From an uncultured delta proteobacterium (GTDB lineage Bacteria; Desulfobacterota; Desulfobacteria; Desulfobacterales; SG8-13): 64,000 nucleotides of DNA. Position 1 is the first letter of the stretch. Each line of letters begins with the position of its first letter. This document shows positions 22,171 to 57,911 of the stretch, piece by piece. A program made the position numbers and the translations under genes. The DNA is taken from contig CAWKCK010000003.1 in the NCBI GenBank assembly GCA_963848135.1, positions 1,054,001-1,118,000 of the forward strand. Reading direction: 5' to 3'. Below the pieces are notes generated by a model that was given only the letters and a program-made list of their open reading frames with translations, ran no database searches and was not told the DNA's origin.

Positions 22171-22858
22171 TTATTGGGGAGGGTTAAATTGATACCCGAC
22201 ACCGTAAACGGTATGAATGATATCTTGTTCGGGAAGACGAAGGGCGATTTTTTTACGAAGATTCTTTATATGGCTGTCGATTGTGCGATCATAGCCTTCA
22301 AATTGATATCCTTGCACCCTGTCAAGTAATTCACTGCGCGTAAAAACACGGTTGGGATTTGCCATCATTATTTTTAATAATCCAAACTCACTGGGTGTTA
22401 ACTTGAGCGGTTGGCCATCAACGGTCACTTGGTGGGTTTCGTCATTTAAGGACAATGGGCCGGAGATCAGTTGTTTCATTTCCGGTGATGTGTAGGTTCG
22501 GCGCAAAACCGCTTTTACCCGAGCAATCACTTCACGCGGGCTAAACGGTTTGCAAATATAGTCATCTGCGCCCAACTCCAAACCGATAATACGATCAATC
22601 TCCTCCACTTTGGCGGTAATCATTAGAATTGGAATGTTTGAAAAATTTCTGACTTCACGACAAACCTGAGTACCGTCCTTGCCCGGTATCATAATGTCCA
22701 ATAGAATCAATGCCGGTTGCTCCCGCTTAACTTTTGGAACTACCTCATCGCCGCGATCCAGGCATGTTACCGTAATATCCTGCCTGAATAAGATAATCTC
22801 GCAACAAATCGGAAATTTTAGGCTCGTCTTCTACGACGAAAATGTGTTCGTTGGCCAT
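22171..22858 (-). CDS. OmpR-family response regulator (BaeR-like); +1 frameshift near 22775
   Basis: MANEHIFVVEDEPKI from ATG 22858 (TAATG overlap) rejoins TVTCLDRGDEV..LILLDIM after removing one base; wHTH RTIDSHIKNLRKK. Confidence 0.85.
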
Positions 22859-34669: not shown

Positions 34670-37287
34670 ATGACCGATACCTTTCAATTCAGACGAGACA
34701 TCCGATTATTGCGTCACACCACAACTTGCAGAGAAAATTACCGCCTTCGGTGCTTAATTCTAATCGTTTTTATGACGATGATATTTTCTCTTACGCACCC
34801 AACCGCGAGTGCGTTAGCGGAGTCGGACAGCAGCGTACCCGTCGATTCAGTCGACTTCCTCACCGCATCCATGGAAGACGCCATAAAAAATGAACGTGTT
34901 CGTCTTTCCGACCTGAAAGAACGTGTCCGGCGGTTTGAACAACAGCTGGTCGCGATCAAAATGAACGTCTCCGCATACGAAACACAAAATACAGCCCACG
35001 AAAATTTGTTTCTGATCCCACATATCGATAGCAAGGACATTGAAAAGGCATTGCTGAGCAACCGGCTGGCAGTAACAGCTCTAAAAAATAGTCTAAAAGC
35101 CTATCTGGGAAAATGGGATGAAGGGTCGACGCTGGTGCAGCAGGTGAAAGATCGAATTTCTTTGGGTGAAAAGCAACTTGCCGAGATCCAGCAGACAAAC
35201 TTGACGGATACCGACAAACAAAAACTGATCGATCTCAACAAAGAATTTTTATTGATCCTGGTAGGAGAAAAGGAGATTGTCGTCCGATATGCGAATACTT
35301 ACCAGAGTATATTGGGCCAGATGAAAAACACTCTCACCGCGCTAGAACAGATGGGCCAAAGCTTGAAACGCTGCTGCGCGAGTGGGCTCATAAATATATA
35401 TTTACACGCACCGATCTCTTTCGCGACCTTTTCAGCGAGGCTGCACGCGCCGAAATGCGACGTCTTTCCGATCAACTGGCCGATCCTTTCACGCCTTCCG
35501 GCATGAAAGCTTATTGGGAGCGAATAAAATTGAGTGGAGGTCGTCAGTGGACAGTATTCTTCGTGCTTCTGATGCTCACTATAGTGGTACAAGCAAGAGT
35601 GCGGCGGGGCCTGGAACATATCGAACCGCGGTTTGGTGGTTCGCAATGGCGCTATTGCCTTCTGGCGTTTCAACTGTTTGAGGCGCTCTTCGATTCTGGT
35701 CAGCTTGGCCCTCTTTTTCACCCTTTGTTATGCTTTCAACTGGACCCTCTTTAATATCGGACTGGCGTGGTTTCTTGCACGTTTATTTCAGTTGTTGCTG
35801 TTCAGACGATGGGGGTTGGACTATTTTAAACTCGGCCTGCATGGGCCGCCAACACCACTGCAAACCTTTGCTGTGAAAAGTCTTCAGCGTTTCATTCGAA
35901 TAACATGGCCGGCGATCATTTTTATTCATGTGATTACATGGTTTGCGGGACGGGGAAGTCCGCTGGCCACTATAGCGACACTGATTATCAGCGTCTGGAT
36001 CCTGTTGTGGACGGTATTTTTCTGGCGGGCCGTTCCGTCAATCGTTGCCGGCGGGGGTTCGAGACGGTCAGGCCGCACCATCGCCGAAAATACTGAATTT
36101 GCTGCGGGGGTGGAGCTTTCTGGTCAGTGTGGGGGCCTTTCTGCTTGGAATTTCAGGCTATATTATCCTTGTGGACTTTTGGATAATATTATGGATTTAC
36201 ACGGTCATAGCGATTCTTTGGGCTTGGATCAGTTTCCAGGCGATTCAGGAGTATCGACTTTATATACAATCACAGGGGGATGGGAGCGGACACGGCTCAC
36301 CTGTCCGGCAGTAGGCCCCACCTGCGTTGGGCCTTGGTTCAAGTCATAAGGGTGGTCTGGTTTTTCGGTTTTGCAGGGCTGGTTGTTCGGATCTGGGATC
36401 GCACCGGTTATGTCTCATTGCGGCTGGCTGGTCTTTTCGATATGACGTTGCGAATCGGCAACCTGACCATCAGCCTAAAAAGTATTTCACTGGCCGTGTT
36501 TATAATTTTTCTCACTCACATGATCAATCGTATCGGCCGGAGCGTGATCGCTGAAAAAGCTCTCGAGAAGCAAACGCTGGAACGTGGACTGAAGGACTCG
36601 ATCCTAACGATCACCAGTTATTTGATATGGGGGTTGGGGTTGGTACTGGCTTTGGGTACTCTCGGCGTGAATGCCACCTCACTGGCGGTTGTGTTCGGTG
36701 CCATCAGCATCGGCATCGGGTTCGGATTGCAGAACATATTCAACAACTTCATCAGCGGCCTGATCCTGCTTTTCGAACGACCGATTCAGGTCGGCGACAC
36801 GTCGAGGTCAACGGTCTCTGGGCCGAGGTTAAAAAAATCAACGTCCGCGCCACGGTCGTGCAGACGTTTGACAACGCCTCGGTGATCATTCCCAATGCTG
36901 AATTTATCAGCCTGCAAGTGACCAACTGGAGTTTCAAAGATACACGGATACGCCGGAACATCGATGTGGGCGTGGCCTATGGTTCGGATATCGATTTGGT
37001 GAGGAAAACTCTTCTTGAAATTGCCGCCGAGGTCACCCAATGTTCTCAAATATCCCCGGCCGGAAGTTATTTTTATGGATCACGGGGACAGCGCCCTGAT
37101 TTTTCGGCTGCGTATTTGGACCCACGTAGACAATTATTGGGCCGTACCGAGCGAGATCCGGTTTGAACTGGATAAGCGTTTCCGGGAATTGAATATCGAA
37201 ATCGCCTTTCCCCAACGGGATGTGCACATTCGTAGCATTACCAAAACGCAGGCGCCCGATCCAGACTCTATCAATGCTTTGGAATAG
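34670..37287 (+). CDS. Large MscS/MscK-family mechanosensitive channel, several frameshifts
   Basis: Signal peptide plus coiled coil, TM block, GIGFGLQNIFNNFISGLILLFERPI.VGD, IIPN, VGVAYGSD, IAFPQRDVH spread over frames. Confidence 0.85.
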
Positions 37288-38687: not shown

Positions 38688-40392
38688 TCACCGTTTGAGT
38701 TCGTGAGGATTTTTCAATGGAAACCGGATTTCAAAACGGGTCCCCTCGCTGACGATGCTGTGTACATCGATTTCACCGCCCATTTTGTTTATAATTCCGA
38801 AACAAATGGACAAACCCAGTCCGCTTCCCTTTCCCACCGGCTTGGTGGTGAAGAATGGATCGAATATTCTATCGAGGTTGGCTTCAGGAATGCCGGGACC
38901 GTCATCTTCCACAATGACCAAAACGTGATGGGTTTCCTGTCGGCTGGTGATATCGATTTTGCCACCATCATTTTCCAAGGCATAGAGCGCATTATTGATG
39001 AGATTTAGAAGCACTTGTTGGATCTCTGTCTGAGATCCATATATGGGAAGTAAATTTTTATCCAGATGTGTATTCATGGCGACTCTGGTATAAGCTGCCA
39101 TATCAGTAATCTCAACGACCTCTTCAATGAGTTCGTTTATCTGGACCTGCTCTATACTCGGTTTTGTTTTTCGGGCAAAACTCAATAGTTTATGCGTAAT
39201 ATCCTTACAGCGTTGTCCCTGTGTGTTAACTTGTTTCAACGCCCGCTTGAATTCTTCAAGATTTTTGCCTTGTTTAAATTCCTCTTCCTCCAGCAAATCC
39301 TCTATCCAACCCGCTTCCTGGACCATAATGGCAACAGGGTTGTTTATCTCATGCGCGATCCCGGCCGCCAATTCGCCCACGGATGCAAGTTTTCCAGTTT
39401 CGATGATCTGCCGATTCATCATTTCCTTTTCACTTTCCGCCTCTGCAAATCGGTTGATCACTTTTTGGAAAAACATGAGTATCATGACGGCAATGAGCAG
39501 CGCGCCGAAAGCAATCATCACCGCGGTAACTATCTGAGTGCGTATCAAGTCCGCAAAAGCTTCCGACTTTTCCTGGTGGTACACCAGCATCCAATCCTCG
39601 TTTTTAAGAAGGGCCGCCACATATATTAGGTTCCCCTGCTCGGAGGGACCTGTAAACTCGCCAGCGTATATCTTGTGATTTTTTTTCTTTGGCCGCTTTT
39701 ATAAAATCCGAATAAGATGTTTTTCTGGGCAGCAAATCGTAATGAGGTTTTGTCTGAAATTCACCCTCCTTGTTTAGAATAAAGGCAGAGCCGGTTTTGC
39801 CAATTCGCAGGTTTTCCGCAAGAGAGTTAAAGGCTTCAAAATTGATCGTTGCCCTCAGCAGATAAGGTCTGCCCTGGTGAAAGCGTTTCACGGACACGAT
39901 GAAATGGGGGCTGGACCGAAGACCAAGAAAAACATCGCTGATATAATTCTGGCTTTCGATCGCTTCAGGGAACCATTGCGCATGCGAATACTGTGCTTTT
40001 TCCAGTTTAAACCGGCCAGCATAGAACTCCTGAACTCCGTCTTCAGTAATGATTCCAAGGTCTTCAAATACATCGCCGTATGTTTTTTGAAGCAGGGACA
40101 ACTTATTCTGCAGGACCGATTCATCAAGGAGGTTTGCGAAACCGCAGGAATCGGAGAGGAACTGAATGTTATTTAGCCTTTCATTCAGGAAACTATCGAT
40201 GTCTTGCGCATGCTTATTCACCATCTCTTCCAGATGCGCATAAACTTTCTCATTGTATGAGATGCCGAATTGATCCAGAATGATGCCGCTAGCCAAAAGC
40301 ATTGGTGTAAATGATACCAGACCGACAACCAACACGATGTTTATGACGAACGATCTGTCATACTGTTTTATTTTGGGTTTATCTTTAACCAT
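38688..40392 (-). CDS. Cache-domain sensor histidine kinase (NtrB-like); frameshift ~39620-39690
   Basis: TM-Cache-TM; GELAAGIAHEINNP, NLINNA, DDGPG, FDPFFTTK, GSGLGL. Confidence 0.88.
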
Positions 40393-41545: not shown

Positions 41546-41702
41546 GAGTATTCACAGGGCACCGCATCTGCTATGTTGTCGAGCACTTGAAGTACAAAAG
41601 TACGTCTGCGCGCCCGACGCCTTGCATCTGCGGCACCCTGTAAACACTTACTATTCTGTGGTCTTTAAGCACATTCGATGTTGCAACCCTGTGAACCGAT
41701 AC
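41546..41702. mobile_element. MITE-like element, family 2, copy A
   Basis: Flanked by GATAAAAT direct repeats; inverted homolog at 50324-50481; TTCACAGGG terminal motif. Confidence 0.8.
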
Positions 41703-41721
41703 GATAAAATTTCTGCAAAAT

Positions 41722-44928: not shown

Positions 44929-46527
44929 CTATTGGGCAGCACTTTGAAGTACTTGCGTCGCCTGCTCGAGAATCCCCTCCGGAAAACCGACGATGGGATA
45001 GACAACAAGAAATCCAACCGTCCAGAGCAACAGCATGGACAGTATAAAAAATCCAAAACCGTATTTCACAAAATCGATCGCTTCAAGGGCCCTCTTGTTT
45101 GTATCCGGGTAAACCCCGAGTGCAAATGTCAGTGCATTGGCAGGTGAACCCACGATAAGGAAATGGGCATACGAGGATGCCAAGGCCACGGCCATGCCGA
45201 TGGCCCAAGGCTCACCGGCAACTTGGGTCATAATTCCCATGGGAACGACAATCGGTCCGATAAGTGCCACAGTCGCAGCATCAGACATAAAATTGGTGAC
45301 CAGACCGGAGAAAGCCGACATGCCGACCCATAGCCCGTAACCCTGATCCATCCCTATTTTTGACAGCCCGTTCAGAAAGGTTGTCGCCAGCCACAGGGCC
45401 CCGCCGCTTTCCTTAAGCAGGGCGCCCAGGGTCAAAGCCCCGCAGTACATGAACCAAGCGTTAAAGGATATGCGTTCCAATATCTGTTCGAATTTCACGG
45501 TTTTGAACAAAATCGGCAAGACCAGGGCCAGAAGCGCTGGACCTCCCAGTCCCGTGGCTTCTCCGCCAAATATCCACAGACCCACAATCAGAAAAAGTGT
45601 GCCGGCGGTGACATACTCGGCATACTTCATCTTCCCCATTCTGCGCGTTTCCTCTTTGATATATTCTAGCCCGGGGGTAAGGTCCCGGGTCTTTATCTTT
45701 CTGCTGAACAATGTGGCCATGTATAGCAATAACATGCCGCTGCCGAGCGGCACCAGGGGCCATCCGTATTTCATCCAGCCGGAATAAGTGATCGGAATGC
45801 CGTATTCGGTAAAAAAACCCATCATGATCACATTGCGTCCACCGGCCGAAGGTGTCCCGGGCCCTCCCATATTCAGGGCGAAGCAAAGGGAAAAAAGCAG
45901 GTATTTGGCCAAGGCCGGATCATGAATGACTTTTCCCTCTGGGCTGGTGGCCTTCACCGACCCGTAATAGACTGCCATCATCACAGGCACCATGAAAGAA
46001 CACATGGCCGGAGCCGACATAAATGAACCCACAATAGACATGCTGAAGCACAGCACGATCATGGGCAGCCAGAACCCCTTGGTCCATCCCAGCAACCAGA
46101 CGGCCAGGCGCTTATGGAAACCGACCTCTACCACCGTCGCTCCCAGGGCAAACACCCCTAGCATGAACAACGGTGCGTCCCCCGCAAAGGTCTTTCCAAT
46201 CATGTTGAAGGGGAGTAATCCGAAAAAATAAGCCATCGTAGGCATCAGGATGCCCGTCACCCCGATCGGAAGAGCCTCGATGGCAAAAAAGATGACCGCC
46301 ATGGGAACAATCCCCAGGACGATCATCGTTTTTTTGGAGGCTTCTTCAACGTTATGGGCGATCTCCCAGTCGATCATCTTTTGGACATAGCCGTATTCTT
46401 CCATCACCTCGATCAGCGACTGGGGCGTTGGTACGATAAAGCCAATCAGAATAAAAACACCAACGCCAATACCGAGCCACAGTCCTTTTTTGGCGAAAAT
46501 TCCGGATTTTTCCCCGTGTGTATCCAT
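44929..46527 (-). CDS. SLC13/DASS anion permease
   Basis: EALPIGVT, GGPGTPSAGGRN, TNFMSDAAT, GSPANA. Confidence 0.88.
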   Translation of the reverse strand: MDTHGEKSGIFAKKGLWLGIGVGVFILIGFIVPTPQSLIEVMEEYGYVQKMIDWEIAHNVEEASKKTMIVLGIVPMAVIFFAIEALPIGVTGILMPTMAYFFGLLPFNMIGKTFAGDAPLFMLGVFALGATVVEVGFHKRLAVWLLGWTKGFWLPMIVLCFSMSIVGSFMSAPAMCSFMVPVMMAVYYGSVKATSPEGKVIHDPALAKYLLFSLCFALNMGGPGTPSAGGRNVIMMGFFTEYGIPITYSGWMKYGWPLVPLGSGMLLLYMATLFSRKIKTRDLTPGLEYIKEETRRMGKMKYAEYVTAGTLFLIVGLWIFGGEATGLGGPALLALVLPILFKTVKFEQILERISFNAWFMYCGALTLGALLKESGGALWLATTFLNGLSKIGMDQGYGLWVGMSAFSGLVTNFMSDAATVALIGPIVVPMGIMTQVAGEPWAIGMAVALASSYAHFLIVGSPANALTFALGVYPDTNKRALEAIDFVKYGFGFFILSMLLLWTVGFLVVYPIVGFPEGILEQATQVLQSAAQ

Positions 46528-46602
46528 CAAAAATGCCTCCTTATGTATCCCGCTGAAATACTCTTTAAGTGTGTCTCGCCTGGTTTCGGAAACGATCTTG
46601 AT

Positions 46603-47157
46603 TCAACGTTCGCAGGTTTTGACCGTATCGCAAATTTTAGAGAACGCATCAGACAGACGCAAGATACCGACGACCTTTTTGCCTCTGGTCACGAGCAGGG
46701 ATTGATAGCGGCACACAACCAGTTGGTGTATGGCTTCATCCAGTGTGGCATTCTCTTCTATATAGACACCATCTTCGGGGGCCTCCATGAAATCACTCAC
46801 ATTCACTTCAAAAGCACGGCTGCAAATAAACTCCAAAGGTTCACTCCAAAGAACGTTATCTTTGAGCATAGACTTGATAAACTCAGGACTATAGCCAGAA
46901 TGCGATAGCACCCCTTTAGCTTCCAGTTCTCCATACTTAGGTTCCAGGGCCATCAGGATGTCAAGCATGTCTAATTTGCCGACAACGTTTTTTTCACTGT
47001 CAAGCACCAATATTGAGCGGTGTTTATGCTTCGACGGGTCGTATGCCATTTGGGCTTTTTCCAAAGCCAGTACCGTCTCGAAAAGATTAGCCTCCTGGGG
47101 CACCGTTGCATACTCTTCGATCGGTACCATCAACTCCTTTACAATTACCGTTTTCAT
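46603..47157 (-). CDS. CBS domain protein
   Basis: VKELMVP..EYATV, VVGKL, VSDFM, VVGILRLSD. Confidence 0.88.
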   Translation of the reverse strand: MKTVIVKELMVPIEEYATVPQEANLFETVLALEKAQMAYDPSKHKHRSILVLDSEKNVVGKLDMLDILMALEPKYGELEAKGVLSHSGYSPEFIKSMLKDNVLWSEPLEFICSRAFEVNVSDFMEAPEDGVYIEENATLDEAIHQLVVCRYQSLLVTRGKKVVGILRLSDAFSKICDTVKTCER

Positions 47158-47273: not shown

Positions 47274-47642
47274 TTATTTGGGACGATTAACGGCCTCCCT
47301 GATGCGTATGGCCAGCGAGTCGATATCCAAAGGAATCAGGAAGTCATCAAAAGCCCCCAATTCCATCGCTTCAATGGAGAGATCCATATGGTTTGCGTCG
47401 TTAATGATAAGAATCTCGGCCGCGGGCCTGATGGCTTTGATTGGGCGAATCAGTGCCAACCCTTCCCGGCCCAGTCCGTCCACTCCCAGCAGGACCGCAT
47501 CGATTTTCTCTTTGGCAACGATGGTCGCAACATCGTCTTGAGGGGTGATTTTATCAACCGTAAACCCCTCCGCCTGCAGAAACTGGTAAAGATTTTTGCG
47601 AAAACGATTTTCGGCTTCAATGATCAATATGCGGATACCCAT
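47274..47642 (-). CDS. Pseudo-receiver protein
   Basis: Receiver fold but IIEAE, LLG (no Asp) and LIP (no Lys). Confidence 0.8.
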   Translation of the reverse strand: MGIRILIIEAENRFRKNLYQFLQAEGFTVDKITPQDDVATIVAKEKIDAVLLGVDGLGREGLALIRPIKAIRPAAEILIINDANHMDLSIEAMELGAFDDFLIPLDIDSLAIRIREAVNRPK

Positions 47643-47682: not shown

Positions 47683-47698
47683 AGCAAAGGGCGTGCCA
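47683..47698 (-). promoter_or_regulatory. Sigma-54 -24/-12 promoter
   Basis: TGGCAC-GCCCT-TTGCT, 40 nt upstream of the first operon gene. Confidence 0.88.
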
Positions 47699-48252: not shown

Positions 48253-48585
48253 TTACAAAATTTCACCCGGCTTGAGCGTCCCTTCGATAAATCGCTCCAG
48301 GGCCGCTTCACTTGATCCGATGACTGAATCGATCACTTCGATCCTCTTCCAGATGAGATACTGGTAGTAATCATCTTCGATGCCGCTGCAGATAACAGTC
48401 TTAACACCTTCAGTAATGACGAGATGGCAAAGTTGGTCTGCCGATGCACGGGGCAGGACCACCATTCTTTTATCCCCTGAATCGGTTTTTCCGATATTGG
48501 TAACGATCAGAACTTCAGTGGCCAGATCAAATCGCGGCGCCACATCATTTTCGTGCAGAGGAATGAGAATCTTTGTGGATATCAT
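48253..48585 (-). CDS. NifB/NifX-like small protein
   Basis: VAPRFD.A, V.TVICSGI; TGATG coupling to the activator gene. Confidence 0.8.
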   Translation of the reverse strand: MISTKILIPLHENDVAPRFDLATEVLIVTNIGKTDSGDKRMVVLPRASADQLCHLVITEGVKTVICSGIEDDYYQYLIWKRIEVIDSVIGSSEAALERFIEGTLKPGEIL

Positions 48586-50066
48586 CAGCGAATACCGTAT
48601 TTTTTCATTTTGCGCCAGAGCGTGCTTCTGCCCCAGCCCAATGAAGCCGCCGCTCTGTTTTTACGTCCGCCCGTCTTGATGAGCGCCTCTATAATCATGT
48701 GCTTTTCAATTTCGCGCCAATCCCGGTGGGTAATGGGATCCGTTATACCACTACCCTCGGCGTTAAGGGCAAAACGAGAGGGCGGCTCTTGTGCAATGGC
48801 AACCATATCGACTTGGCCAGCTTCCAGCAAATAGGAGGGCAGGTGTTTGGGATTGATTTGCCGATCTGCACAGACATTTACGGCGTATTCAATTATATTT
48901 CTCAGTTCTCTGACGTTTCCCGGATATGGGTAGTTAAGCAAAATTTGTAGTGCCTTGCGTGACAGAGAGAGCTTTTTTTTGCCCAGCTTGGTTGAAAGCG
49001 TGTTTAAAAAATGATCCAGTAGCAGTTGAATGTCCCCCTGTCGATCGCGCAGAGGAGGAAGATGAAGCCGGATCACATTGAGTCTGAATAAAAGGTCTTT
49101 TCGGAACCGGTTGTCGTTGACTCTCTGCTCGAGATTGCGGTGGGTGGCCGCAATGATCCTTACGTCGGCGATAGACCCTTTGACACTGCCTATAGGAAAG
49201 ATTTCTTTGTCATCCAGAAAAGTGAGCAGCTTGACCTGAAGCGAAAGTGGAAGATCGCCGATTTCGGTCAGGTAAAGCGTGCCGTTGTGTGCCTGTTGAA
49301 ACCTCCCGGGTTTATTCTCTATGGCGCCGGTAAAAGAGCCCTTACGATGGCCGAACAATTCAGATTCTAAAAGGGTTTCCGGCAAAGCACCGCAATTGAT
49401 TTTGACAAAAGGACCCTTGGCCCGGTTCGACGAATGATGGATCGTTTCGGCCACCATGTCCTTTCCGGTACCGGTTTCGCCGGTGATCAGGACTGATGAG
49501 TCGCTCTGAGCCAGTGAGGGAAGAATCTGGAAAATTTTTTCCATTTCCGGACTTCTGCCGATAATATTGTTGAATTTGTAGGCGTGACTGGTTGTTTCGT
49601 CGAGTTTCCGAATAAGGCTGATGTCTTCCACGGTTTCCATAAATCCAACCATTTTGCCATCAATGCCTTTTAAGGGGGTAGAGGTGATGCGGATGGGAAT
49701 CAATTGGCGGTCCATGTTAATGAGATTGCCTTCGATGCATTTGGGACCGGATTGTTCATTGAGACCCAACGCCGGGCAGTTTTGAAGACAGATGTTGCTG
49801 CGCAGGACATGGGCGCAGGCGACACCGAATACCGCCTTTTGGTTGAAGCCGGTAAGGGCATTCAGGGTTTGATTCATGAAGACAATCTTTCGATCCATGC
49901 TCAGGACCGCGACGCCGATGGCGATTTCATCAAGCAATTCAAAAAAATCGATCGGAATATTGAAAAGGTCATTGATGTATGGCGGGGCCGCGGCGCGCCG
50001 ACCGGTAACAACCCGAATAGAACCTTTGCTGGGCACATTGGTTTTATGGTCGGAAACTTTTTTCAT
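48585..50066 (-). CDS. PAS-AAA+-Fis sigma-54 activator
   Basis: GETGTGKD, ESELFGH..GSFTGA, LYLTEIG, PGNVREL, RSTLWRK. Confidence 0.92.
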   Translation of the reverse strand: MKKVSDHKTNVPSKGSIRVVTGRRAAAPPYINDLFNIPIDFFELLDEIAIGVAVLSMDRKIVFMNQTLNALTGFNQKAVFGVACAHVLRSNICLQNCPALGLNEQSGPKCIEGNLINMDRQLIPIRITSTPLKGIDGKMVGFMETVEDISLIRKLDETTSHAYKFNNIIGRSPEMEKIFQILPSLAQSDSSVLITGETGTGKDMVAETIHHSSNRAKGPFVKINCGALPETLLESELFGHRKGSFTGAIENKPGRFQQAHNGTLYLTEIGDLPLSLQVKLLTFLDDKEIFPIGSVKGSIADVRIIAATHRNLEQRVNDNRFRKDLLFRLNVIRLHLPPLRDRQGDIQLLLDHFLNTLSTKLGKKKLSLSRKALQILLNYPYPGNVRELRNIIEYAVNVCADRQINPKHLPSYLLEAGQVDMVAIAQEPPSRFALNAEGSGITDPITHRDWREIEKHMIIEALIKTGGRKNRAAASLGWGRSTLWRKMKKYGIR

Positions 50067-50323
50067 CTGCAATCCATAGCACATGTATGCTATTTTGAGC
50101 TTAAGTTTGCCTATTGCATCGACAACAAACCAGGTTCTTCCAAGGTGCATTTTCGAGCATCGAAAATTCCCTTATACCGCGCTTGTATAAACCGTAATCT
50201 AAGCCGCGATCCACCGGGAATCGGGTTTACGGTACAACCATTCTATTTAATAATCCATCAAAATAAACATCGGCCATGGTTCCATAGCCTGAAGGCTGGT
50301 GTGGTTGTACACGAATTATATTC

Positions 50324-50481
50324 GTATCGGTTCACAGGGTTGCAACATCGAATGTGCTTAAGACCACAGAATAGTAAGCGTTTACAGGGTGCCGCAGATG
50401 CAAGGCGTCGGGCGCGCAGACGTACTTTTGTACTTCAAGTGCCCGACAACAAAGCAGATGCGGTGCCCTGTGAATGCTTAC
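50324..50481. mobile_element. MITE-like element, family 2, copy B (inverted)
   Basis: Reverse complement of 41546-41702; flanked by TTATATTC / TTGTATTC. Confidence 0.8.
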
Positions 50482-50784
50482 TTGTATTCATCAACGGATA
50501 AGGGTAATGAAGGCTTGACCTTGTCCACTTGTCAGATGATAGTATAACCTAAAGTGAGCTTTTCAAATTTCAAAAGTAGGGAGAGCTGTTTTATTTATTA
50601 GGTATAAAAATCTCAAGTTTATTGTTTCCATGATAAACTGGCAGCAGAAAATACCGATTCATGCAAGTATATTTCTCTTTGTCGAAAGTGGGTCAGCTCC
50701 GAGATCGGGTTGACATGTTTAATATGCGGCACCTTGAATACCATTGATTTGCCTGTATGGCGCTATGATGAGAGGATAATACCC

Positions 50785-51834
50785 ATGTCAGTTCACCGTC
50801 AAGGTATACACGAACGGATCCAGTGGCTGCTTAACTTGGGCCGCGAACACGCCCATGAGTTTTGCACCCCGGAGGTCTTCCTTGCCCGGCAGCGCTACCT
50901 GGCCGAACACCCGACACTGGTTGCCGTCATGAAGTGCATGGACGGGCGGATCCACATTCCTTGGGCCACCCATACGCCGCTTGGCATTATTAAACCGTTC
51001 CGCAATCTGGGCGGTATCTTTGACCTTGGCTGGCCGTATCTTGGCGAGGTGCTCAATGCCACGTTTCAAAGCGCAGTGAATAATGGCCGTCGCGTGCTTC
51101 TGTTGATCACCTATCACTACTCCAAGGCTACACCACTTCGTGGTTGCGCCGGTTTCGAGTACAACCGTGATGCCGCCATCGAACACACCTACCGCATCAA
51201 GCGACAAGTCGAAGAAACCTTTGGAAAGGATCATCAGACCGTCTACCCGGTTGTGTGCGGCTTCGAGACTGACGTGGACGCATTGATCCTTCATGGTGAA
51301 AACGGTATATTGGATCTTGCTTCAGAGACGGATACCCAGGCCGACGCATTATTGCCCCGGTTGATGGCGTTGTTTCCGGACATGCCCCGCCAGGTGATGC
51401 TGGACTTCCTGCCACTGATTCAAGGCAACATCGCCCATATTGCTGAAATGCGTCAATCTGACAGAGAACTCGACATCGTACATCGCGAATGGGCCATCTG
51501 CATCGGGCGTGGCTTCGATTTTTTCCACGTCCCCAATGTTGCACTCATTATCGGTCCGTACAGCCCCGATCTCAGTGATCCCGTCCGAAAAGCGGCGACA
51601 ATCATCCGCAACAATATGAGTGACGGTCGTATCCCTGACGACGGATTTCTCTTGCTGGCCTCCTCGCCATACCAGGAGATCGGCGTCGACCGTGCCCGCG
51701 CGACCCTCAAGGGCCGTTTTTTGTCCCAATTTGCAGCCGATGTAATCGAAAAGGCTTATCCTGATCTTCATCAAAAGATGGTCCCCTATACCGCAGTACT
51801 AAACTGGCGCACGCGAGACCTTGAAGTGATTTAA
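50785..51834 (+). CDS. Beta-class carbonic anhydrase, CsoSCA-like
   Basis: KCMDGR, RNLGG.F, and YHYS-x6-GCAG long His-Cys spacing. Confidence 0.72.
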   Translation: MSVHRQGIHERIQWLLNLGREHAHEFCTPEVFLARQRYLAEHPTLVAVMKCMDGRIHIPWATHTPLGIIKPFRNLGGIFDLGWPYLGEVLNATFQSAVNNGRRVLLLITYHYSKATPLRGCAGFEYNRDAAIEHTYRIKRQVEETFGKDHQTVYPVVCGFETDVDALILHGENGILDLASETDTQADALLPRLMALFPDMPRQVMLDFLPLIQGNIAHIAEMRQSDRELDIVHREWAICIGRGFDFFHVPNVALIIGPYSPDLSDPVRKAATIIRNNMSDGRIPDDGFLLLASSPYQEIGVDRARATLKGRFLSQFAADVIEKAYPDLHQKMVPYTAVLNWRTRDLEVI

Positions 51835-51849
51835 AGGAAAGAGAACGGC

Positions 51850-53029
51850 ATGCCGACTTTATCCGTCTTCCACCACTTTCGTTTTCAAGATGTATTGGAT
51901 ATCATATTTCTTTCGTTTGTCGCCTATCATCTCTACATATGGTTTTATGAAACCAAGGCGTTTAAAGCCCTTGTGGGCCTTCTTGGACTGGGAATTATCT
52001 ACAGTGTGGCGCAATCCTGGGGCCTGTTTCTAACCACTTGGGTCTTTCAAATCCTATGGCAAGTTTTAATCATACTGCTCATTATTCTCTTTCAGCCTGA
52101 AATCCGTCAGGTCCTCGAAAAGGTGAATCCCTTTTACGCCCTTGGATGGCGAAAAACCGTTGGCCGTATTCCCTGGATTGAAAGTTTCTCCAAGACCATA
52201 TTCGAATTGGCATCGCAACAAGTCGGTGCCTTGGTCCTGTTCGAACGCAAAGACCGGCTGCGGGAATTTATTACCGGAGGAATTCCCTTTGAAGCCGATC
52301 CAACGCGAGAGGTTATTGTCAGCATATTCCAAAAACATTCGCCTCTGCATGATGGGGCTGTACTGATGAATAACGGTCGAGATAACCATGGCGGCAGGTT
52401 TTTTACCGCTGACTTTGCGTGAGGGGTTGGCCAAAGAATGGGGGACGCGACACCGGTCAGCGATCGGTATCACCGAACGCTGTGATGCCTGGGCGCTGGT
52501 TGTATCAGAGGAGCGCGGTCAGGTTTCGTTGGTTCGCGGGGGTGTGCTCGAACCGGTCGCGTCTCCTGAAATACTTGAGGTGAAACTCAAGGAGCTGTTG
52601 ACCCCTTCAACTCCGGAATTGACCAGCAAGCTCCAAAAAGTAAAGCGTTTGTTGTTGAACCGATGGCGGGTAAAACTGGCCACCCTTGCGGTTGTCAGCG
52701 TACTATGGTTCTCTTTCGCTGGACAACAGGATGTTGAAGTGACGCTCGAGATCCCACTTTCCATGCATAATCTATCACCCCAATTGAGGGTTGACCCGGC
52801 GAATCAAAATGTAAAGGTCACGGCACGTGGGTTGCGCAAGGATATCGGCATGCTGAGTCCCAAAAATGTAAAAATCAATCTGGATCTAACCCAAGTCAGT
52901 GCCGGCAAAAAAAATTATTACCTCAATCGGCAGCAATTGTTATTACCCAATGATCGTATCGAGGTCACTAGAATCGAGCCCAACAATCTCACACTGGAAA
53001 TTTTACCTAAATTAGAACCAACCAATTGA
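51850..53029 (+). CDS. dacA: Membrane diadenylate cyclase (DacA/CdaA) with C-terminal YbbR-like domain; frameshift near 52380
   Basis: 3 TM, FQPEIR..LE, PLHDGA, GTRHRSAIGITE, VVSEERG; then TM and YbbR-like beta domain. Confidence 0.85.
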
Positions 53030-53195
53030 AACAAAAGCTAAACCATTCCACCACGGTTTTTCCGTTTTTCCCCAAATAGTAGATGCCGTGTTCCCTTTAT
53101 TGTAAACGACTTGGAGGGCGTGTTCGAAGACAGAGTGTTATTGGATACCGCCAGCCGAAGACTCCATTCGAAGAATAACTAACCAGACCAATGCT

Positions 53196-54910
53196 ATGAA
53201 ACTTATTCTCAGCGAACTCATATTTTAATAACGAGAAAACAGGAACAGAACTTCTGGATGTTAGGAAAATTCTTCATTGCTCTGACTGCAATGGTATCCG
53301 TTTACAGCGTCTTGTTTCACTTCCTGATGATATATGAAAACAGAGAATTTAGCTGGGTTACCGGCTTTTATTGGACACTGACGGTTATGTCCACCCTTGG
53401 TTTCGGTGATATTACTTTTGCCACAGATCTTGGAAAGATGTTCTCGATTATCGTTCTGATGTCTGGAATCGTATTTCTCCTCACGATGCTTCCCTTCACT
53501 TTTATCCAGTTTTTCTATCTACCGTGGCTGGAATCCCAGGCCAAAGCCAGAGCGCCGCGGGAATTGCCCAGTGGCACCAAAGGCCATGTCATCCTTACCA
53601 GCTATGATCCGGTTACGATAAACCTGGCGGAAAAATTCCGCCAATATCATAATGATTACGTTATCGTGGTAGAAGACGTTCAACAGGCGTTGGAAATTCA
53701 GGATTTAGACTTCAGGGTGGCGGTGGGGAAACTGGGTGATACGGAGACTTACCAGCGATTGAGAACTGAGCATGCCGCGCTTGTGGTCGCCAATGTCGAT
53801 GACATGATGAATACCAACATCGCCTTCACAGTTCGTGAAATTTCTCAAAAAGTTCCCATCGTTGCGAATGCTGATGTTGACGACTCCGTTGATATTCTTG
53901 AGCTGGCTGGAAGCACTTACGTATTTCAATTTACAAAAATGCTGGGACAATCTTTGGCCCGCAGGGTTATCGGTACAACCACCAGGGCAAACGTTATCGG
54001 AAAAATCGAATCATTACTGATCGCAGAAGCCCCGGCCATGAGGACGCCTCTTGTCGGCAAAACACTTCTGCAAAGTAAACTGCGAGAGATAATCGGAGTC
54101 AATGTGGTGGGCGTATGGGAACGCGGTCGATTTAACATTCCTACCGCTCAAACGCTCATCAGTCCTCATACCGTTCTTCTGCTGGCCGGATCCGGTGACC
54201 AATTCAGTGAGTATGACGAAAAGTTCGGCAGGGAAAAAAAATACCAGGCTCCGGTACTGATTTTGGGTGGCGGTCGGGTTGGCCGGGCAGCCGCAGCGGC
54301 CTTGATGGAGCGCAATATTGATTACCGAATCATTGAAAAAAAACAAAGACTCGTTGAAGACGAACGGTATATCTTCGGAAGTGCTGCCGACATCAATACA
54401 CTTATGAAGGCCGGAATCAATGAGGCTCCTTCGATAATCATTACGACCCATGACGATCCGACAAATATTTACCTGACAATCTACTGCCGCAGGTTAGCTC
54501 CCAATATACAGATTATCTGTCGGGCCAATCTCGAAAGGAATATTTCAAAATTACACACGGCCGGGGCGGACTTGGTGATGTCATATGCGTCAATGGTCGC
54601 CAATACCATCATCAACTTGCTCAAACCCGGTGAATTGTTAATGCTGGCCGAAGGGTTAAACATATTTCGGGTTGCCGTGCCTTCATCTCATGTGGGCAAA
54701 TCGCTTGCTGAAAGCCAGATACGCACCCAAACGGGATGCAATGTGATTGCCGTCTGCGACCCGGATACAATGTGCATCAATCCCGGTCCTTCCCATCGTT
54801 TTGGTGAGAATAATGAGCTAATTCTGATCGGCAATTCGGAAGCCGAAAGCCGATTCTTCACAATGCATTCGGGAATGAAAAAGATCAAGGCTGCAAAGGC
54901 AGAGGCATAG
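53196..54910 (+). CDS. Potassium channel with two TrkA-N/TrkA-C (RCK) modules; probable frameshift near 53225
   Basis: YWTLTVMSTLGFGDI pore; ILGGGRVG; two TrkA-C repeats. Confidence 0.9.
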
Positions 54911-55072
54911 GAGCGAATTCAATAGAGCATTGACCATGGTGGTGTTAGATGCTTTTTCCTGTCCCGCCAAATGGGCCACAACTTCAATTTACATAGGCAA
55001 TTTGCTTACCATATATACACTAGGATTATATGAAGATATTTTGTTAAGCGAACAAATATATCGCGTGGGTTT

Positions 55073-55250
55073 CTATATCAGGTATTTCTGGAATAAAACG
55101 GCAAATCCGAGAAAGGCAAAAAACCCCATAATATCAGTAACAGTTGTCAGAATAATGTTTGCACTCTGCGCAGGATCTATACCAACCTTTTTCATAAAGA
55201 GTGGAATTGCAGCACCGGATATCCCTGCGAAAATTAAATTTAGATAACGG
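55073..55250 (-). pseudogene. mgtE: C-terminal remnant of an MgtE Mg2+ transporter
   Basis: G..IPL.MKKVGIDPAQSANIILTTVTDIMGFFAFLG; rest of gene absent. Confidence 0.75.
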
Positions 55251-55296
55251 GCAAGCCTTCCCTTAAGCACGATTCTGGTAATTTTTACTGATTGGT

Positions 55297-56206
55297 TCAA
55301 CGTGGACGCCATATCATATTCCTACGGTTTTTTGGGGATGTTCGGGAGTAACGATAGCCCTTCGTCGTGCTTTGCTTCGAGATCTCCGGAATGGTAAATA
55401 CCACATTTTTCCCGGTGACCGGACATCGAAATTCTAGCGATACCGCGGTGAGTTTCAGGCCACCGGGGTTCTTGTTGCCCTTCCCGTATAAGGGGATCAC
55501 CCATGATCGGGTGACCGATCATCTCGAAATGGCGCCGCAGCTGGTGGCGGCGACCGGTTATCAGTCTGATGTCGATGGTGCTGGTGCCGTTAGCGGGAGA
55601 ATGGGCCGTTACGGTATATTCGGTCAGCGCCGATTTCCCGTCCAGCGGTAAGTCGATTTTGCCCACCGATTGCTTTCCGTCCAAAACGCCGAGAACCTCG
55701 GCCCGATACCTTTTGATCACCCGCCGGTTTTGAAAAAGGGCCGAGAGGCGCCGGGCGGCATCCCGCGCATGCGCCACCAGAACCACACCCGGCACCTCGC
55801 GATCCAGCCGATGCACGGGATGAACGGGCCGGCGCCGTAAAAAATACGTCTCAACCGCACGCAGCAGGGCGCAGTGGTCGCCGAAATTACTGCCCTGCGT
55901 CATCATCCCCGCCGGCTTGAACCAAACGCTGTACGTTTTCCGATCCGCGAGCATATCCGCGGGTGGTGGTGTTCTGGCGAGAATATTTTCATCGTAGAAA
56001 ATCTCCAGTACGTCCCCAACGGCCAAGGTGGTTGTTGCCCGCCGCAGGCGCCGGCGTTTGCCTCTGCCCTTTTTCAGCCAGACGGCGCCCTTGATCATGG
56101 CTTCCTTGATCTTGGTTTTGGAGAGACCGGTACCGGTGGCAAGAAGTTCGCTGGCCATACGAATGTCACTGGGTCCGACGATTTTTTTGAAGACAACAGG
56201 TTGCAT
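55297..56206 (-). CDS. RluA-family pseudouridine synthase; frameshift near 55490
   Basis: KPAGM, VHRLDRE, TGRRHQLRRH, GHPIMGDPLYG. Confidence 0.88.
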
Positions 56207-56243: not shown

Positions 56244-57911
56244 TCATGAAGATTCCGGGGTAGAAGCAGTGATGATAGTGGCGATTTTATTGTTCAGCCG
56301 TTCTTTGCGTGATGGGAAGATTGCCGCGCTGCGCCGTCTGGCCTGCTTCGATTCCTCTACGAAGTAATTCAGAAGGTCGATGTCATCCGACACCTTCTGC
56401 CGGCTTTTCTGGCGCTTTCAATTCTGGCCAGAGCCGCCAGGATGCCGTACATGCGAAGGCTGAGGTCGGTTATGCGCCGGAGCAAGAACTCTTTACGGAA
56501 GATTTTCTTCCCATAAAGAAACAGCCCGGCATGCACGAGGAGGTTAATTCGTCCGGGCGTTGGTGCGCGCGACCCCGACAGCCCGGTCCATATCCGCTTG
56601 ATTGAAACGCAGCTGCCAGCGCATGCGCTTGAAAGCATTTTGGAGAAGGTAGATGGCTGATTTGATTTTGTTGCCGGACAGCCCTTGCAGTTCTTTGGCC
56701 AAACGGCGGATAATGAATAGGGCCGGGTAGATGGAGTGAATTTCAGTTGTGCCTTCGAAGATGGTGGTCACCCTGAAGTCTCGCATGCGCATCTCGTACG
56801 GCAGGGTCGCCAGGTAACCGGCGCCGCCGGCGACCTGGAGAGCATCATAGAGGGTGTTCCAGGCGCGGGTGGTGCCGAAAAGTTTGCTGTGGGAGCTTTC
56901 GATCGCCACGACCGCCAGAGGATCGGTGGCAAGCATACTGGCGGTAAAGGCCGTGATGGCCGAAGCGATGTAGCCGTTGACCCTGGCGTGTACCAGCATT
57001 TCCTGGATCAGTTCAAAGCGGTTGATGGGAACATTGAACTGGGTTCGAGAAGCGGTTCTTTTTTTCATGTCTGCCAGCGACTGGTCCATCATTCCCGATG
57101 AACCGGCGCCGAGGGCCAGCCGGCCGTAGTTGAGAATGGTCATCGCGATTTTAAAACCATCGCCCGGTAGACCCAGAAGGTTATCAACCGGAACCTTGAC
57201 GTTATTGAATTGGATGGCCGCTGTTGAGCTGGCTTTCAGACCCATCTTGGGCATATCCTTACCGATTTTCACACCCTTCCAGCCGGTTTCCACGACAAAT
57301 GCGCCCATGAAACCGGGCTCGTCCGGATTCATCTGGGCAAAAACCGTCAACCCCCCGGCATAGTTGGCATTGGTGATGTACGTCTTGCGACCGTTCAGGA
57401 TGTAGTGGCGCCCATCGGCAGACAGTGTTGCCGTGGTTTCGATATTTTGTGCATCCGACCCGCGATCCGGTTCGGTCAGGGCATAGGAGAAAATCATTTC
57501 GCCGGAAGCGGCCAGAGGCAGATACTTTTTTTTCTGAGCGTCGGTTCCGAATAGTACAATGCCTTTTATGCCGATAGACAGATGCGCCAGTGCCGTAAAG
57601 CCAAGGGACATGTTCTGGGAGACAATTTCTTCGACCACTTTCAGATATTGCCACAGGTTCAGTCCCACACCGCCGAACGCAACCGGTATATTGAGACCAA
57701 AGAAGCCGATCTGTTTGAGCCGATCCATGGCCTCCGGCGGGATGACGCCTTTTTCATCCAGATACGTTGCCGGGAATTCCCTTTGAACGTCGAGGAACCG
57801 TTGGATCAGCTGCCGGGTTTTATCGTCCGGTTCGATACCCCGGAATGCCCGCAACTGGTCAACATCAAGGTGGCCGGATAAGGCTTTCAACAGGAAACTT
57901 TCGTTGTTCAT
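56244..57911 (-). CDS. Long acyl-CoA dehydrogenase (ACAD9/VLCAD-like); frameshifts near 56560 and 56385
   Basis: YALTEP..GSDA, GRKTYITN, KMGLKAS, LNYGR, RDFRV.TIFEGTTEI. Confidence 0.88.

Follow-up and report, generated by a model that had tools for sequence, protein, structure and literature searches.

The locus analysed here lies in a DNA stretch of 64,000 nucleotides (the window) and carries genes for a carbonic anhydrase (CA) of the CsoSCA2 type, for a diadenylate cyclase of the CdaA type that ends in a YbbR-like tail and for a K+ channel of the GsuK type, together with the 3' remnant of an mgtE gene. All four genes named in a preliminary description of this DNA were recovered by domain searches where it had placed them (4/4). 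Our comparison with related loci suggested that pieces of different histories have rather probably been joined together here. By sequence comparison, the persisting unit is cdaA followed by the channel gene, as found in the window and in the loci L137 and L138. The best explanation, which we favor with reasonable though far from full confidence on sequence and analogy, is that c-di-AMP would act on the RCK_C domains of the channel in this cdaA–channel core, the CA gene having become its neighbor by rearrangement.

The cdaA paralogue (51850..53029, + strand) was delimited using Pfam, NCBIfam and its orthologues; it has the order CdaA_N, DAC, a further TM helix and YbbR-like tail, and its length when intact is about 392–403 aa. 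The first of its two ORFs (51850-52422) encodes CdaA_N (PF19293) and the first half of the DAC domain (PF02457), and the second (52388-53029) encodes the remaining DAC half. The DGA and RHR motifs reported earlier are indeed present, split between the two ORFs (residue 168 of the first and residue 21 of the second). Both halves are also matched by the NCBIfam model for CdaA-type diadenylate cyclases (TIGR00159), each below the whole-protein cut-off. The YbbR assignment made earlier stood in part: the tail aligns with residues 293–381 of the 478-aa cdaA paralogue of G214, in which Pfam places YbbR at residues 300–383, yet it gave no match to Pfam YbbR (PF07949) at E ≤ 10. The genome has three DAC loci in all, and the window cdaA is a paralogue of the main form, which has roughly 480 aa. 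The genome also encodes a PgpH-type phosphodiesterase candidate, and no c-di-AMP riboswitch was found in it. As previously described, glmM is not located beside cdaA; it sits on another contig (C2:240575-241897).

The gene that follows on the same strand encodes a 2-TM K+ channel of the GsuK type in which RCK units occur in tandem (53193..54910, + strand), identified by Pfam and by a profile match to 4gx5 (E 2.4e-118 over residues 9–533). Its longest ORF (53258-54910) contains Ion_trans_2, two TrkA_N and two TrkA_C matches in Pfam. The filter TLGFGD at residue 46 and the two TrkA_C stretches confirmed the earlier reading of a GFG-pore channel with two RCK_C domains. An indel near 53220 has put the probable native start, 53193, out of frame with this ORF. 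Moreover, the nearest solved relatives of the second RCK_C domain of the channel (RCK_C2) after GsuK are BusR (7b5u, E 1e-5) and Staphylococcus aureus KtrA (4xtt, E 3e-4), whose RCK_C domains bind c-di-AMP. RCK_C2 is identical to the BusR pocket at 2/9 positions and shows conservative changes at 5/9.

The channel gene and the mgtE remnant together form a block (53163..55384, no strand assigned), delimited by aligning the window to L106 and L107 with blastn. The congeners G003 and G006 do not have this block between cdaA and rluA; its left edge is bridged by contig X1 record 4. The convergent MgtE fragment of the preliminary description was located at 55073..55312 on the − strand and covers positions 78–124 of 125 of Pfam MgtE, with homology limited to the last ~57 codons (55073-55240). 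Searches of the remnant with Pfam and NCBIfam found no MgtE_N, CBS or complete membrane domain; because it has no CBS domain, the window mgtE piece cannot be a c-di-AMP receptor. Homology with the mgtE of L138 ends at 55240, and the L138 gene runs on to encode at least 384 aa. Judged from its sequence, the window mgtE is a dead 3' stump and not a functional member of the locus. The fragment shares 75% identity with a full-length mgtE paralogue at C17:1032763, and C4 carries a further mgtE stump. Convergent with the channel lies a gene for an rluA-family pseudouridine synthase (55297..56206, − strand), assigned by its domains and by comparison with G003 and G006, in which rluA is the native downstream neighbor of cdaA. 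A dispersed 160-bp hairpin repeat was also noted near the locus.

The linkage of cdaA, channel, mgtE and CNNM genes was then compared among related loci. In G003 and G006 the gene order is DASS transporter, hybrid kinase/receiver, receiver, cdaA and convergent rluA, with no channel. L137 has the same upstream context, followed by cdaA and the channel on one strand, and L138 has a CA 3' remnant, a stretch of 712 nt, cdaA, the channel on the same strand as cdaA and a long convergent mgtE. Other arrangements were found on one strand in G214 (cdaA, an ORF of 104 aa similar to the N-terminus of MgtE, channel) and L151 (cdaA, CNNM, channel, with mgtE 2.8 kb downstream). In L180/L214, cdaA and mgtE are followed by the channel 4 kb further; in G020, two mgtE genes, a Na/Pi transporter gene and cdaA are followed by the channel 4 kb further; and in L185 a cdaA400-like gene lies 2.3 kb upstream of the channel. 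In addition, a convergent mgtE lies 16–133 nt behind the channel in L167, L170, L172, L175, L179 and L201. The ion-transport part of the preliminary description was thus partly upheld, with the cdaA–channel order kept in L137 and L138 and related channels near cdaA, mgtE or CNNM in a number of independent gene orders, but not for the window mgtE, which has no CBS domain.

Among the metagenome channel loci (n = 80), 7 had a DAC gene, 13 had MgtE and 2 had CNNM, and among those with at least 3 kb of flank (n = 50), 15 had DAC, MgtE or CNNM and 35 had none, counts that overstate the signal because related loci are not independent. By our own arithmetic, about two cyclase genes per 4.5 Mb would place one within 6 kb in approximately 0.5% of loci. 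In 6/58 channel-bearing genomes an mgtE gene and a DAC match lay no more than 5 kb apart, and in 52/58 no DAC match was found within 20 kb on the same contig. The occurrence of the channel near cdaA, mgtE or CNNM across the order is in keeping with the control that c-di-AMP is known to exert on K+ and Mg2+ transport, as far as gene neighborhoods can indicate.

Pure coincidence would offer another account, in which the four genes are functionally unlinked and the cdaA–channel adjacency is a neutral outcome of insertion and deletion in a rearrangement-prone region. The remnants that make the region a patchwork, namely the mgtE stump, the CA stump located at C17:729430-729618 and the C4 mgtE stump, are consistent with this account, as are the nearby hairpin repeat, the absence of the channel from G003 and G006 and the fact that most channel loci have neither a cyclase nor an mgtE neighbor. 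However, cdaA of two paralogue types lies within 5.5 kb of the channel in the window/L137/L138, L185, L151, G214, L180/L214, L144 and G020, at least three lineages have mgtE immediately behind the channel, and the recurrence is far above the expected value given above. We consider coincidence unlikely, while granting it some weight.

The frameshift in the cyclase gene, which the preliminary description had feared to be real, is most likely an assembly error. Relative to three orthologues, a single additional base near 52377-52382 puts the second cdaA ORF in another frame than the first. All five orthologues (G003, G006, G011, L137 and L138) are unbroken, the window halves share 81–92% identity with that of G003, and X1 record 2, an almost identical short-read contig (3 mismatches in 383 nt), is without one base at 52382. 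Similarly, the N-terminal frame of the channel is restored in the short-read contig X2 record 15 by the absence of the bases at 53220 and 53222; each of these two corrections comes from a single contig with a depth under 5. Compared with G003 and G006, rluA shows one frame switch, near 55490, and the acyl-CoA dehydrogenase gene shows two, so that at least four further frame breaks beyond that of cdaA occur within 6 kb. The breaks in cdaA, the channel N-terminus, rluA and the acyl-CoA dehydrogenase gene are most likely assembly consensus errors.

If these breaks were instead real, the cdaA paralogue, the channel N-terminus, rluA and the acyl-CoA dehydrogenase gene would be recent pseudogenes, and the other two cyclases would supply c-di-AMP. 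The density of breaks (five in about 6 kb of assembly), the position of the extra cdaA base outside any homopolymer, the frequency of gene remnants in this genome and its two other DAC loci would agree with such decay. We nevertheless regard it as improbable: near-identical short-read contigs are without the extra bases at both sites covered, and the flanks of each break are highly conserved, without stops or more damage. Furthermore, split-looking genes also occur among unrelated genes elsewhere in the window, and the pattern therefore fits consensus errors. For frame breaks in this assembly, no pseudogene should be called before a read check.

The first gene of the locus, csoSCA2 (50785..51834, + strand), encodes a compact, non-carboxysomal CsoSCA-type beta-carbonic anhydrase of 349 aa, as indicated by Pfam, profile and fold comparisons. 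It scored 23.0 bits against Pfam CsoSCA_cat (PF20686; cut-off 21.5), and a profile of the CA family matched CsoSCA 2fgy with an E of 5.7e-8. The AlphaFold model (pLDDT 86.5) matched 8thm (E 5.7e-16) and 2fgy (E 4.1e-15) with a TM of 0.71 in Foldseek. The residues C51, D53, R55, H111 and C121, which provide the zinc ligands (Cys-His-Cys) and the catalytic pair of Asp and Arg, are invariant in 17/17 aligned homologues and align to the CxDGR and H...GC motifs of 2fgy. In the model the N-terminus is short, with helices at 8–26 and 29–41 and the first strand at 44. Homologues with 62–67% identity are spread over Proteobacteria, Chrysiogenes and candidate phyla, and no carboxysome shell or RubisCO family was found among the ORFs of the window. 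On the basis of sequence and model, the product is a member of CsoSCA2 and a predicted carbonic anhydrase. The same genome also contains a CA stump, the one on C17 mentioned above.

The CA stop codon TAA ends at 51834 and the cdaA ATG lies at 51850, in agreement with the 15-nt gap described before. This junction (51835..51849, + strand), defined by homology breakpoints, is all that is left of the native sequence upstream of cdaA and carries the cdaA ribosome-binding region. Homology with the five closest CA loci stops at the CA stop codon (51832-51835) in 5/5 cases; on the cdaA side it begins at 51835 in G006, L137 and L138 and at 51844 in G003 and G011. Two short-read contigs, X3 record 20 and X2 record 13, span the junction without a single difference; the runs they come from belong to two studies, and one of these runs may be the source sample. 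A survey of CA–cdaA–channel synteny, set beforehand as a refuting test, found that the CA–cdaA adjacency is not conserved. It was absent from all 80 other CsoSCA2 loci kept from 590 confirmed relatives and from the five closest ones (0/5), and the cyclase, this channel and mgtE were each found in 0/80, although these control loci come mostly from taxa possibly without any cyclase. The adjacency is also absent from G003 and G006, both of which have the cdaA orthologue, and L137 has cdaA without CA. The sole other case of a CA near cdaA is L138, in which the CA is 5'-truncated and its 712-nt distance to cdaA includes the remnant of a receiver gene. By these comparisons, the CA gene is a neighbor by recent rearrangement, outside the conserved unit.

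The probable course of events is that a lineage-specific rearrangement placed the CsoSCA2 gene upstream of cdaA and that a later deletion of 712 nt moved the CA stop codon to its present distance from the cdaA start. Tight spacing of this kind can stem from recent deletion rather than from selection, and at most, the CA promoter might now read through into cdaA in this lineage. The proposal that CsoSCA2, cdaA, the channel and mgtE form a single circuit in which c-di-AMP synthesis and K+ flux would be coupled to CO2/bicarbonate or pH could draw on the short CA–cdaA gap, in which no terminator-like site was found, on a junction that the short reads confirm as real and on the CA remnant of L138, but it is very improbable given the 0/80 loci with a cyclase or channel, the divergence of the five closest CA loci at the stop codon, cdaA without CA in L137, G003 and G006, the stump-like CA of L138, a window mgtE without CBS domains and the recurrent neighbors of CsoSCA2 elsewhere, which are DabA together with NuoL-like genes, and Hyf-like complexes. 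Coupling to CO2 or pH would have been the surprising part of the preliminary description, and it was left unsupported.

In the explanation that we favor, the conserved core would consist of a gene for a second, membrane-anchored cyclase and, on the same strand, the gene for a GsuK-type dual-RCK K+ channel, originally with mgtE convergent behind it. The cyclase would make c-di-AMP, whose targets would be the RCK_C domains of the channel and, in relatives, CBS domains in MgtE and CNNM transporters as well. In this way c-di-AMP could set K+ and Mg2+ fluxes, as in Firmicutes systems. Weighing against this explanation are the majority of channel loci without such neighbors, the channel-less cdaA loci of G003 and G006, the ligands reported for GsuK, the few identities with the BusR pocket and the negative riboswitch search. 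We also consider, more tentatively and as a doubtful generalization, that GsuK-type channels of Desulfobacterota are c-di-AMP-gated, with the CdaA paralogue of ~400 aa serving as a dedicated local cyclase, a wider cdaA–mgtE–CNNM–channel neighborhood for ion homeostasis and capture of the pair behind csoSCA2 in one lineage. The known c-di-AMP receptors Ktr, CpaA, KhtT, BusR and MgtE are almost all from Firmicutes, and to our knowledge c-di-AMP signalling is almost unstudied in the Gram-negative, sulfate-reducing Desulfobacterota. We know of no description of a linkage between GsuK-type channels and cdaA or mgtE, from searches of the GsuK and c-di-AMP-receptor literature that were not exhaustive for it. 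If the cdaA–channel link is functional, c-di-AMP receptors would extend to GsuK, which is structurally characterized and whose physiological ligand is uncertain, and c-di-AMP signalling would extend to sulfate-reducing Desulfobacterota.

In the CdaA-CdaR-GlmM system of Firmicutes, CdaR is a separate protein and cdaR and glmM are operon partners. The window cyclase has in common with it CdaA_N, a DAC domain with DGA and RHR, and an accompanying, putative YbbR-type extracytoplasmic element. In contrast, the YbbR-like part in the window is fused behind an extra TM helix, with no separate CdaR, and cdaA is without cdaR and glmM partners, glmM being on the other contig.

The homologues of the carboxysome shell carbonic anhydrase that occur outside carboxysomes are described as CsoSCA2 (Sutter, Kerfeld and Scott 2022, PMC9164163), a family that this paper presents as unstudied, with no member assayed. 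The window CA shares with the compact variant described there the size of ~350 aa, an N-terminal region of ~40 residues with two helices, a pair of beta-CA domains of which one is active and the other defunct, the non-carboxysome setting, the conserved zinc ligands and the CsoSCA fold. Nothing essential differs from the family; the window copy adjoins a gene for a sigma-54 activator and is unique in also adjoining cdaA. Among c-di-AMP receptors, RCK_C and CBS domains are described as common (PMC8844918, PMC8517857), and MgtE of Bacillus subtilis is reported to bind c-di-AMP (PMC8844918). The window stump is homologous to the last membrane helices of the MgtE Mg2+ channel, but it is without MgtE_N, the CBS pair and the complete five-helix membrane domain. 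In relatives, mgtE genes of full length are neighbors of cdaA or of the channel.

The window channel shows full-length homology to GsuK of Geobacter sulfurreducens (4gx0/4gx5), including the 2-TM pore with a TxGFGD filter and the two RCK units. GsuK, the nearest channel to have been characterized, is reported to be gated by ADP, NAD+ and Ca2+ (PMC3510474), with c-di-AMP not among the ligands given in the abstract. The RCK_C receptors described as binding c-di-AMP are KtrA/KtrC, CpaA, KhtT and BusR (PMC8517857). Compared with the BusR pocket as described in PMC8517857, RCK_C2 of the window channel has N in place of T165 and T in place of H160 of the polar rim, but it keeps the PGP turn and the small, hydrophobic pocket (L483, A484, I488, C494, V496, G510 and P511).

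Searches against Pfam and NCBIfam placed four genes as the preliminary description had stated. A 349-aa ORF (50785–51834, +) matches the CsoSCA catalytic domain weakly but above threshold. It is followed by cdaA, read as two overlapping ORFs in different frames, the first (51850–52422, +) carrying CdaA_N and the first half of the DAC domain and the second (52388–53029, +) carrying the second half. A 550-aa ORF (53258–54910, +) contains an ion-channel pore with two TrkA_N and two TrkA_C stretches, and a 79-aa ORF on the opposite strand (55073–55312, −) matches the final 47 positions of the MgtE membrane domain; the next gene past it, also on the minus strand, belongs to the rluA family. The DGA and RHR motifs, the TLGFGD filter and the 15-nt gap between the carbonic anhydrase (CA) gene and cdaA all matched the description, and the absence of glmM from the locus was borne out, glmM lying on another contig. 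The YbbR label held in part: the cdaA tail aligns to paralogues having Pfam YbbR, although the tail itself has no Pfam match.

The CA is the compact CsoSCA2 variant of Sutter, Kerfeld and Scott (PMC9164163), which according to that paper occurs widely outside carboxysome loci and had not been studied. The family is large and very conserved, with 2362 proteins matching at E ≤ 0.001 among the candidates scored and homologues of 62–67% identity in Gamma- and Betaproteobacteria, Chrysiogenes and candidate phyla. Cys51, Asp53, Arg55, His111 and Cys121 were invariant in 17 of 17 aligned members and line up with the zinc-site residues of CsoSCA (2fgy). Moreover, the AlphaFold model of the window CA (pLDDT 86.5) matched only CsoSCA structures strongly (8thm, E 5.7e-16; 2fgy, 4.1e-15, TM 0.71). 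A Pfam CsoSCA_cat search of the genome had missed even the window gene; copies sought by tblastn included a second csoSCA2, a 63-codon 3′ stump (C17:729430–729618) 87% identical to the window copy, which adjoins a Hyf-like membrane complex and a CBS protein. At the equivalent position csoSCA2 is full in two compared loci (L007 and L009) and split in a third (L010).

The proposal that the locus ties CO2/bicarbonate or pH to K+ flux was not supported by the surroundings of this CA elsewhere. Among the best 80 of 590 confirmed CsoSCA2 relatives, compared with flanks up to 7 kb, a DAC protein, a GsuK-type channel and MgtE were each found in 0 of 80 loci. The suggested adjacency of CA and cdaA was likewise not conserved, the nucleotide homology of the five closest CsoSCA2 loci (81–94% protein identity) with the window ending at 51832–51835, the CA stop codon. 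In the 74 of 80 loci in which the CA ORF was picked (L012, L030, L054, L057, L070 and L075 were left out), the recurrent neighbours were NuoL-like subunits (17 loci) and DabA (10 loci), and in close relatives a Hyf-like membrane complex and a CBS protein. The CA does not belong to a conserved unit. Separately, in Thiodiazotropha-like and other Gammaproteobacteria CsoSCA2 is convergent with three NuoL-like genes in a row (L011, L013, L014, L018, L019, L023, L024, L027, L036, L039, L047 and others), with DabA beyond this row in 10 loci where the flank extends that far; a free cytosolic CA beside a CO2 pump (DabA) is unexpected.

The native context of cdaA was seen in related genomes. Its orthologues in two congeners (G003 and G006) and in genome G011 are single open frames of 392–423 aa, with 92%, 87% and 78% identity, respectively, to the C-terminal cdaA ORF of the window. 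In both congeners cdaA is the last gene of a row comprising a DASS transporter, a hybrid kinase/receiver and a receiver, and directly past it lie a convergent rluA and then the acyl-CoA dehydrogenase genes that the window also has. Homology with these genomes around the cdaA start begins only at 51835–51844, and nothing in them corresponds to the segment 53163–55384 with the channel and the mgtE stump.

Two near relatives from metagenomes showed how the locus has been rearranged. The first (L137), with 90% nucleotide identity to the window over 51835–54923, has the upstream genes of G003, an intact 392-aa cdaA and the channel; CA and mgtE are absent from this locus. The second (L138), 88–93% identical to the window, starts with the 3′ end of the window MscS gene (36867–37261, converted from a match on contig C3), which is fused straight to the final 470 nt of the CA gene (51366–51835); 712 nt including the 3′ end of a receiver gene follow, and past them come cdaA, intact with 395 aa, the channel and a convergent mgtE that is cut off by the contig end with at least 384 codons present. 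The sole adjacency surviving in the window, L137 and L138 is cdaA followed by the channel. In the common ancestor of the window and L138, a CA block would have been joined to a receiver stump–cdaA–channel–mgtE block; the window lineage would later have dropped the 712 nt, leaving the 15-nt gap, plus most of mgtE, and the L138 lineage would have dropped 14 kb including most of the CA gene. The window junctions are not assembly chimeras: the CA/cdaA junction is spanned with 0 differences by two short-read contigs (X3 record 20 and X2 record 13), and the 53162/53163 junction by another (X1 record 4); one of the runs behind these contigs may be the source sample. None of the compared short-read contigs reached across the right edge of the inserted block (55384). 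A simple reciprocal inversion was rejected, as the genes after CA in L006 sit at C3:114584–120585 and the DASS–kinase–receiver block of G003 and G006 is represented only by a 68% paralogue on contig C5; the rearrangement history is more complex than a single event. A second isolated mgtE 3′ fragment was observed in the same genome (C4:54816–54974), a 54-aa open frame 65–75% identical to the window stump, and therefore the same mgtE end has been left behind twice.

The frame breaks at the locus point to consensus errors in the assembly. The window cdaA has one extra base relative to the three orthologues, and a short-read contig with 3 mismatches over 383 nt (X1 record 2) lacks one base at 52382, which speaks against the real frameshift considered in the preliminary description. 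The upstream ATG of the channel (53193), the start codon in L137 and L138, does not share the reading frame of the rest of the gene in the window; the frame is restored in another short-read contig (X2 record 15), where two bases (53220 and 53222) are missing. Furthermore, rluA switches frame near 55490, and the acyl-CoA dehydrogenase (56262–57911) does so twice relative to G003, at about 56390–56551. Consensus error is indicated because these five breaks fall within 6 kb in otherwise well-conserved genes and two of them are corrected by short-read contigs; each correction is a single contig with depth under 5, and the breaks may instead be real pseudogenes. Genes elsewhere in the window also look split: a response regulator (22171–22710) whose receiver domain is without its first 44 positions, an MscS-like gene (35633–37166) in three ORFs and a Cache histidine kinase (38688–40392) in two overlapping ORFs.

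Promoter and terminator scans for the CA gene gave nothing above shuffled controls, no good match to the sigma-54 consensus was seen upstream of csoSCA2, and 50100–55500 contained no Rfam match. The only perfect sigma-54 site in the window (47683–47698, −; 0 mismatches to TGGCAC-N5-TTGCW) adjoins a sigma-54 activator gene (48585–50150) and serves the divergent genes for a receiver (47274–47642), a CBS pair (46603–47157) and a DASS/CitMHS transporter (44929–46530). Two repeats were also observed. A dispersed repeat of about 160 bp (50321–50481 and 41551–41704) forms a long hairpin (−79.5 kcal/mol, z −8.3) and has about 50 copies in the genome among the blastn matches listed (80–99% identity, several contigs); in G011 a copy is found just past the cdaA orthologue. 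The repeat resembles a MITE, and rearrangements at the locus could have used it as a substrate. The other, of about 60 bp (50545–50605, intergenic, upstream of csoSCA2), has about 35 genome copies of 77–87% identity.

The channel is a full-length GsuK homologue (4gx5, E 2.4e-118) with a patchy distribution, being found in 65 of 301 genomes sampled from the order (E ≤ 1e-60) and in only 1 of 15 other congeners (57% identity), with its best matches (84% and 80%) in other families. When the coordinates of channel, DAC and MgtE matches were compared by eye in 58 channel-bearing genomes, a DAC match lay at most 5 kb from the channel in two (G214 and G020), 13 kb away in G239 and some 16 kb away in three genomes belonging to a single genus; in the remaining 52, no DAC match on the contig of the channel came within 20 kb of it. 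MgtE lay at most 5 kb from a DAC match in six of the 58 (G141, G185 and G255, of one genus, G239, G020 and G013). In G214, cdaA (478 aa), a 104-aa ORF and the channel follow each other on one strand; the ORF (L123 6873–7187) has no Pfam match and looks like another mgtE stump, given its similarity to the mgtE products of L144, L151, L154 and L180 at their N-terminus (53–65% over 42–63 aa). G020 has the order mgtE, mgtE, Na/Pi transporter, cdaA and, 4 kb on, the channel, and G239 the order CNNM, cdaA, mgtE. Among the best 80 of 91 metagenome channel loci (mean length 6.8 kb), a DAC gene occurred in 7, MgtE in 13, CNNM in 2 and CsoSCA2 in 1 (L138), and 15 of the 50 loci having at least 3 kb of flank had at least one ion-related neighbour. 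By our own arithmetic a cyclase gene is expected near about 0.5% of loci. Relatives are not independent of each other, yet at least seven distinct arrangements bring cdaA within 5.5 kb of the channel. As a side observation, two lineages have a gene for a small P-II-like protein immediately before the channel gene: in G239 (L124 17548–18727) the protein has a Pfam P-II match and is accompanied by a DUF1538 membrane protein, and in L185 (5420–5752) the resemblance was judged by eye from the N-terminal sequence only.

RCK_C and CBS domains are reported to be commonly bound by c-di-AMP, which regulates KtrA/C, CpaA, KhtT and BusR and binds B. subtilis MgtE, and the CNNM-type Mg2+ exporter MpfA carries CBS domains too (as described in PMC8517857 and PMC8844918). 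The cdaA/channel/mgtE/CNNM neighbourhoods hold exactly these domain classes of known c-di-AMP receptors. After GsuK, the nearest relatives of the second RCK_C domain of the channel were the c-di-AMP-binding RCK_C domains of BusR (E 1e-5) and S. aureus KtrA (E 3e-4). Mapped on this domain, the BusR pocket residues I153, G154, V158, A164, T165, I166 and P181 correspond to L483, A484, I488, C494, N495, V496 and P511, and the main-chain positions W159 and G180 to R489 and G510; two of the nine positions are identical and five are conservative changes, a likeness that is compatible with c-di-AMP binding but proves nothing. In addition, the genome contains two further DAC loci and a PgpH-type phosphodiesterase candidate, and no c-di-AMP riboswitch was found in it. 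Taken with the receptor domain classes, the further DAC loci and the phosphodiesterase candidate favour a model in which the membrane cyclase would make c-di-AMP that acts on the channel. The ligands reported for GsuK itself are ADP, NAD+ and Ca2+ (PMC3510474), so that an action of c-di-AMP on the channel is something we infer. Of the ion circuit first proposed, the CO2/pH part is not supported, whereas the K+/Mg2+ part is supported, at the level of gene arrangement, by recurrent linkage in the order and fits established biology. The genes are members of known families, namely CsoSCA2, CdaA, the GsuK-type channels and MgtE (a remnant here); the novelty lies in the lineage and in GsuK-type channels as a candidate receptor class.
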